Assembly: GCF_003334335.1 (NCBI RefSeq)
Contig: NZ_QOWQ01000074.1
Strand: one strand, 5' to 3'
Source: Escherichia coli
Lineage (GTDB): Bacteria > Pseudomonadota > Gammaproteobacteria > Enterobacterales > Enterobacteriaceae
Length of the DNA stretch: 6,951 nt
A program made the position numbers and the translations under genes. Within the stretch, counting starts at the first letter, position 1, and each line of letters begins with the position of its first letter. Below are positions 1,267-1,962 of this stretch, piece by piece. The notes beneath the pieces were generated by a model. The model saw only the letters and a program-made list of their open reading frames with translations, was not told the origin of the DNA and searched no databases.

Positions 1267-1596
1267 ATGTCAAAACCCCGATGAACCATTGAACAGAAAA
1301 GGCAGCACGTTGCTGCCTGGCGCGCCAGTGGTCTTACACGTCAGCAATACTGTGAACTCAACGATATTCCCTTCACATCACTTCGCGAATGGCCGCAGGA
1401 TGTCGCAAAAGCTGAACGCCGGGCAAATGAACCGACCGTTCTTCCCATTCATATTGCGCCACCACTGCATGCTGATGTACCACAGCCCGTCACGAATGAG
1501 CCAGTCACGCTCTTCCTTCCCGGTGGAGTACGGATGTGCTGTCAGCCGTCACAACTTACCGATGTCTTCAGGGCACTCAAATATGCTCAGTCCTGA
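1267..1596 (+). pseudogene. tnpA: IS66-family TnpA (orfA, helix-turn-helix protein) interrupted by an in-frame TGA at codon 6 (1282-1284)
   Basis: Frame 1 reads ATG(1267) S K P R TGA T I E Q K R Q H V A A W R A S G L T R Q Q Y C E L N D I P F T S L R E W ... F R A L K Y A Q S, stopping at 1594-1596. The HTH-type motif matches IS66 orfA. There is no ATG, GTG or TTG between the TGA and the HTH region, so a full-length product needs readthrough or a reverted stop. The 3' end overlaps the tnpB start by 14 nt, as in IS66 elements. Confidence 0.6.
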
Positions 1597-1962
1597 TAAT
1601 GTCTTCATCGCAATTAAACCTGTTGACATGCGCCGGGGCATCGACTCACTGACGCAGTATATACATCGACATGGCATGAGGGAGCCGCCTTCGTCTTTGT
1701 TAACAAAGCCCGTTCGCGTATCAAAGTTCTCCGGTGGGATAAACACGGGGTGTGGTTGTGTACCCGCCGTCTGCACAAAGGCAGCTTCCGCTGGCCACGT
1801 GCAAATGACGCTGCCTGGCACCTCACTCCCGACGAGTTTAACTGGCTGATTGCCGGTGTTGACTGGCAGCAGGTTAAGGGACATGACCTGACGAAATGGG
1901 TCTGGCAGAATGAACCTGAACTGCGCCCTGAAAACACGCAAAATACACTGCTAACTCAGTGA
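1583..1962 (+). pseudogene. tnpB: IS66-family accessory protein TnpB (orfB) with a -1 frame break between about 1663 and 1692
   Basis: The N-terminal part is in frame 2 from ATG 1583 (MLSPDNVFIAIKPVDMRRGIDSLTQYI...). The C-terminal part is in frame 1 (GAAFVFVNKARSRIKVLRWDKHGVWLCTRRLHKGSFRWP...LTPDEFNWLIAGVDWQQVK) to TGA at 1960-1962. Both halves match the IS66 Orf2 family, and one missing nucleotide would fuse them. The six-frame track shows the C-terminal half as ORF 1750-1962. Confidence 0.75.

Follow-up and report, generated by a model that had tools for sequence, protein, structure and literature searches.

The tnpB gene of an ISEc49-type insertion sequence of the IS66 family is split between two reading frames by a 13-bp deletion in the 6951-base stretch of Escherichia coli DNA analyzed here as a whole (the window), and this deletion is inherited and is not a technical artefact. 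The same 13-bp deletion is present in all ten complete RefSeq E. coli genomes carrying the locus and in 17 of 17 related loci examined, which were taken from complete genomes, draft assemblies and an ENA metagenome scaffold. Inheritance is concluded because the identical loss, in non-repetitive sequence, recurs across laboratories and countries. With high confidence, the copy is the product of a single insertion followed by fixed inheritance, in which the 13-bp deletion broke tnpB and neutral drift took over thereafter. So understood, the ISEc49-type copy is a fossil, neither an active element nor a recoded one.

The element and its locus

E. coli chromosomes match every part of the window, and among 5,426 complete genomes the whole 6951 bases are found at an identity of at least 99.9% in ten. 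The features of the window are collected in Table 1. Boundaries of the IS66-family element can be regarded as proven, because the two flanks joined through one copy of GCATTAAC (200 bp) are found at 100% identity in K-12 MG1655, where this empty site lies between agn43 and yeeR, and in many other genomes. The GCATTAAC direct repeat on either side of the element is perfect over 8 bp, and 8 bp is the length of the IS66 target duplication (PMC6778807). The ends are imperfect inverted repeats, with about 19 of the 27 outermost positions matching and 24 of 40 over a longer stretch, and matches to copies of related elements in other genomic contexts start at window position 1180 and end at about 3926-3932. 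Inverted repeats, target duplication and empty site together establish a single ancestral insertion.

Table 1. Positions of features in the 6951-base window, numbered from its first base
Feature	Position	Strand	Remarks
agn43 (autotransporter adhesin gene), 3' end	stops at 1088		from the annotation of relatives
Target-site duplication, left copy	1172-1179		8 bp, GCATTAAC
ISEc49-type IS66-family insertion sequence, complete	1180-3932	+	2753 bp; agn43-yeeR intergenic region
Terminal inverted repeat, left	1180-1206	+	GTGTCGTTACGGGGAAGTCATCTTCAC
tnpA	1267-1596	+	in-frame TGA at 1282-1284; NF047593 match
tnpB pseudogene	1583-1962	+	frame 2 to 1665, frame 1 from 1666; start overlaps end of tnpA
13-bp deletion junction	1665-1666	+	intact homologue has GGATGAACTCCGG here
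Premature stop of shifted tnpB product	1847-1849	+	
tnpC	1969-3570	+	533-aa IS66-family DDE transposase ORF, intact
Terminal inverted repeat, right	3906-3932	-	reverse complement GTAAGCTTCCGGGGAACTCATATTGAC
Target-site duplication, right copy	3933-3940		8 bp, GCATTAAC
yeeR-like gene, start	3964-4251		interrupted by the IS21-family element, after which the remainder of the gene resumes
ISSso4-like IS21-family element	4235-6872		cuts the yeeR-like gene

Membership of the IS66 family is evident from both proteins and structure. TnpC scores 440.9 bits against NF033517 (cut-off 180 bits), with profile positions 3-386 of 387 covered, and TnpA scores 50 bits against the IS66 TnpA profile NF047593 (cut-off 28 bits). 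The Pfam families LZ_Tnp_IS66, zf-IS66, DDE_Tnp_IS66 and DDE_Tnp_IS66_C are recorded for an identical TnpC protein, and the 533-aa length is that of the ISEc49 transposase in strain SCU-101. The accessory genes tnpA and tnpB lie upstream of tnpC in the same orientation, the ATG of tnpB at 1583 falling inside tnpA, which ends at 1596. Transposase, accessory genes, inverted repeats and 8-bp duplication are thus all in place, but the three intact ORFs of an autonomous element are not, as tnpB carries the 13-bp deletion and codon 6 of tnpA is TGA. In outline, the IS66/IS679 prototypes (Machida 1984; Han et al. 2001; Gourbeyre et al. 2010, cited in PMC6778807) likewise have three ORFs with TnpC as the DDE transposase, a target duplication of 8 bp, and terminal inverted repeats that start with GTAAGC at one end; the window copy differs from the prototypes so described in its 362-bp tail, its degenerate left repeat, and the disabling of two of its three genes.

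Some further structure was seen at the edges of the element. A perfect 12-bp palindrome (GGTCCCGGTCAT / ATGACCGGGACC) is located at 1109-1133, just 3' of the agn43 stop, and is probably the stem of the agn43 terminator. The non-coding tail of the IS66 element 3' of tnpC (3571-3932, 362 bp) is unusually long and is kept in the intact SCU-101 copy. It contains a hairpin with 94% complementary arms (3576-3593 and 3626-3643) and three 16-nt repeats at 3710, 3743 and 3776, spaced by exactly 33 bp. An Rfam scan of the window at gathering thresholds gave no matches.

The lesion in tnpB and its expected consequences

Read in frame 2, positions 1583-1700 encode MLSPDNVFIAIKPVDMRRGIDSLTQYI before running into unrelated sequence; read in frame 1, positions 1660-1962 encode STWHEGAAFVFVNKARSRIKVLRWD...FRWP..., ending in a stop at 1960-1962. 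The NCBIfam profile IS66_TnpB (NF033819, a curated equivalog of 90 positions with a cut-off of 50 bits) is divided between the two frames in the same manner: the frame-2 product matches positions 1-28 (20.5 bits, E 3.4e-4) and the frame-1 product positions 28-90 (79.9 bits, E 9.6e-23), whereas in the intact homologue a single frame covers positions 1-90, with 115.2 bits. The split is real and far beyond chance. The frame-1 part, for all its 79.9 bits, lacks a start codon, and the product from the native start falls short of a single polypeptide scoring at least 50 bits across the 90 positions. An earlier note on this DNA, made from the sequence alone, had placed the N-terminal motif of tnpB in frame 2 and the C-terminal motifs in frame 1, and both the translations and the two profile halves agree with this; the frame switch, expected between 1663 and 1692, was found at 1665/1666, and the extent given for the gene, 1583-1962, is exactly that of the PGAP tnpB pseudogene in near-identical genomes.

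Strain SCU-101 (NZ_CP051849.1; tnpB WP_000950648.1) carries an intact copy, annotated by PGAP as ISEc49, 3' of agn43 and at the same insertion site as in the window. The two copies have the same tnpA-tnpB-tnpC order, the same tnpA/tnpB overlap and the same ends, and over 1100-4000 they are separated by seven substitutions besides the deletion; relative to SCU-101, the window copy is 13 bp shorter in tnpB, and its tnpA codon 6 is TGA in place of TGG. For location of the lesion, window positions 1150-2000 (851 bp) were aligned with the same locus in SCU-101, with its intact 130-aa tnpB, and in strain G1/2. The sole indel against SCU-101 over the 851 bp is a 13-bp gap, and the identical gap is present in G1/2. 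The intact order is ...CAGTATATACA GGATGAACTCCGG TCGACATGG..., from which the middle 13 bases are missing in the window and in G1/2, with the junction between 1665 and 1666. Because the ends of the lost segment recur in neither flank, the gap can be placed in one way only. Microhomology or direct repeats beside the 13-bp deletion, which might have explained it by slippage, were sought and none were found.

The deletion takes tnpB codons 28-31 and one further base, and since 13 is one more than four times three, the net result is a -1 frame change. The shifted product has 27 native and 61 out-of-frame residues, or 88 aa, versus 130 aa in the intact protein. Alignment to an intact tnpB, which the earlier note had proposed as a check, did locate the lesion, but the single missing base that the note supposed was wrong: compared with the intact ISEc49-type gene, 13 bp have been lost, with a net change of -1. 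Programmed -1 frameshifting, of the kind used by IS3 and IS1 transposases, was also considered and rejected. The junction, CAGTATATACATCGACATGG, has no slippery run or heptamer, and the two-frame layout is not conserved, the other tnpB copies listed being 393 bp long and annotated as tnpB.

A course of events can be proposed from these observations. An ISEc49-type IS66 element entered the agn43-yeeR spacer of a CP4-44-like island once and has been inherited there, fixed, from then on, and in one lineage of E. coli tnpB was struck by a spontaneous 13-bp deletion. Read from its own start, tnpB now leaves the native frame after residue 27 and halts at 1847-1849, and the conserved core of the protein, covering profile positions 28-90, is left without a start codon. 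Transposition of IS679, of the IS66 family, reportedly needs TnpA, TnpB and TnpC; if all three ORFs are needed here as well, the copy would be non-autonomous because TnpB is lost, and by this analogy it is presumably unable to transpose by itself. Translational coupling to tnpC would probably be lost too, because ribosomes would halt about 120 nt before tnpC. The deletion would be a first hit followed by neutral drift, with descendants gaining differing lesions, among which the TGA in tnpA of the window would be a late event unless it is a base-call error.

The earlier note had suggested that the element could still be mobilized in trans, and active mobilization of a non-autonomous copy by an intact relative was considered. 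With an undamaged target duplication, undamaged inverted repeats at both ends and a full-length tnpC, mobilization would be structurally possible in principle, and three related loci (L010, L012 and L016) carry nearby a further IS66-family element whose 115-aa TnpB is intact. No donor was found to support it. A second related tnpA-tnpB pair (with 5' tnpC) was sought at distant sensitivity in the seven chromosomes with the deletion listed besides the G strains, and none was found, there being one place in each; likewise, a search at near identity found no second tnpB place in the ten complete genomes with the deletion, again one in each. Furthermore, every copy found with the deletion is at the same agn43-yeeR site, and none was found away from it among the complete genomes and related assemblies examined. 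Different members of the IS66 family are not known to complement one another. Ongoing mobilization in trans is accordingly very unlikely.

Inheritance of the deletion and standing of the other lesions

Searching with tnpB alone retrieved exactly 10 of the 5,426 complete genomes at an identity of at least 99% without a gap, the same number as carry the whole window. The next-best tnpB copies listed drop to 96.7% identity owing to 13 gap columns, spanning 393 bp versus 380 bp, and are annotated as tnpB. Matches at 95-99% identity number 158 records, of which those listed are likewise 393 bp and annotated as tnpB. The ten complete genomes come from unrelated projects, with sources that include ICU staff (China), surface water (Norway), healthy humans (Germany), a urinary isolate (Mexico), a frigatebird (Brazil), wastewater (Galapagos, Ecuador) and stool labelled Switzerland/Kenya. 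The draft and ENA metagenome relatives were gathered by look-up of the exact TnpC protein, and all have the 13-bp deletion. Other copies with the same lesion, for which the earlier note had advised a search, were therefore found both in the ten complete genomes and in drafts, without exception among the 17 loci. The index of a public assembly collection places the exact 533-aa TnpC in 785 blocks, with the deletion present in 10 of 10 places examined there, and drafts of E. coli genomes may commonly belong to the lineage with the deletion.

The best match to the window, DETEC-S792 (NZ_CP116067.1), is identical to it over the 6951 bases except at two positions. The DETEC-S792 locus and those of the nine other complete genomes share with the window the tnpB deletion and a run of six A in the istA gene of the adjoining IS21-family element, both genes being pseudogenes according to PGAP, and differ from it in having G at 1284, with tnpA intact (WP_042014874.1), and G at 4056. 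The istA frameshift is a contraction from A7 to A6 at 4824-4829, as compared with the intact ISSso4-type copy in ETEC1717. The A6 run is common to every relative with the IS21 insertion, and istA is annotated by PGAP as frameshifted.

These comparisons bear on whether the frame change in tnpB could be an artefact of sequencing or assembly, the true genome having an intact gene. Some sequencing platforms typically make errors in homopolymers, the neighbouring istA is also shifted by -1 and in a homopolymer, and the window does hold two bases that are absent from every relative examined. However, tnpB has lost 13 bp of non-repetitive sequence, which is neither a homopolymer slip nor an error usual in base calling, the loss is identical in 17 independently made assemblies from many laboratories and countries, and even the A6 run of istA is common to all relatives with the IS21 insertion. 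The artefact reading is effectively refuted by this shared inheritance and is left with a negligible probability. A technical cause shared by the two -1 events, which the earlier note had offered as an alternative, is likewise rejected, because the lesions differ in kind, one a non-repetitive 13-bp loss that recurs and the other the contraction of an A run, and because both are shared by relatives.

The nonsense codon in tnpA is of a different standing. Codon 6 (1282-1284) is TGA in the window and TGG (Trp) in relatives, the change being at base 1284. SCU-101, G1/2 and every other relative examined (17 loci) have G at this position, and tnpA is called intact there by PGAP. The bases private to the window are A at 1284 and T at 4056, the latter synonymous within the yeeR-like fragment, with G at both positions in 17 of 17 relatives. 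A 38-mer with the TGA allele had no matches when searched in JGI metagenome contigs. Because it is private to the window, the tnpA stop is either a later mutation or a base-call error. Both inactivating lesions described in the earlier note are present in the window sequence, but they are unequal, the deletion being old and shared and the TGA a single private base, which calls for caution against over-interpretation of the latter.

The tnpB deletion is thus a correct and ordinary finding, and the status of tnpB as a pseudogene is already in public annotation, where NCBI PGAP flags it in related genomes. Its importance is small beyond correct annotation and the showing that the frame change is real and inherited, although the 13-bp deletion is usable as a marker of the E. 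coli lineage with this variant of the agn43 island.

Later decay and the neighbouring IS21-family element

The tnpC gene was described in the earlier note as intact within a decaying element, and both descriptions are supported, the former by a full-length 533-aa ORF matching NF033517 nearly end to end. The ORF is unchanged in most relatives, which differ overall by no more than a few SNPs over 7 kb. In G1/2, by contrast with these, an 83-bp deletion in tnpC (window 2257-2339) has led PGAP to annotate the gene as frameshifted, and by annotation the same is found in G6/7 and G8. Together with the insertions of another IS66-family element in other relatives and the private tnpA stop of the window, this makes up a scatter of lineage-specific lesions, as neutral decay predicts. 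The conservation of tnpC could be read as selection, but the SNPs are too few to tell.

A related proposal is that the split in tnpB is tolerated or bypassed, either by recoding that gives a near-full-length TnpB or by retention of TnpC for a host function, with the loss of tnpB as domestication. That the exact 533-aa TnpC should occur in 785 blocks, and be unchanged in most relatives although tnpB is dead, is in keeping with this. Nonetheless, a restored frame would still lack 4-5 residues at profile position 28, and the CAGTATATACATCGACATGG junction offers no slippery run for recoding. Breakage of tnpC in G1/2 (the 83 bp) and, by annotation, in G6/7 and G8, together with interruption of the element by other IS in L010 and L016, argues against selection, and divergence is in any case too low for constraint to be inferred. 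Tolerance or bypass is therefore extremely improbable. Retention of the ISEc49 copy after the loss of tnpB because the host or the island benefits from its intact TnpC or its structured 362-bp 3' tail, the deletion being a step in domestication, is just as improbable. Single insertion with subsequent deletion and neutral drift is the reading retained.

Additional insertions were observed around the locus in relatives. IS421 is present in agn43 in G1/2 (L002 2806-3918) and, by annotation, likewise in G6/7 and G8. The different IS66-family element of the drafts L010 and L016 is inserted in the ISEc49 tail at the equivalent of window position 3732, and that of L012 (CP077225.1) lies within the IS21 element at the equivalent of 4547. 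This extra element is apparently intact, with TnpA of 214-225 aa, TnpB of 115 aa and TnpC of 523 aa.

The IS21-family element of the window has features of its own. The duplication at its flanks (4228-4234 and 6873-6877) looks imperfect, the left side reading GCTGG and the right side GCGG; the gene of SCU-101, which is uninterrupted, has GCTGG once. Five direct copies of a motif of about 20 nt, CGATCnnnGnTTGGCAT, are arranged at a spacing of about 23 bp inside the left end of the element (4252-4363), and inverted copies of the motif are found at the right end (6803-6867). These repeats resemble the multiple copies that IS21 elements typically have as terminal repeats.
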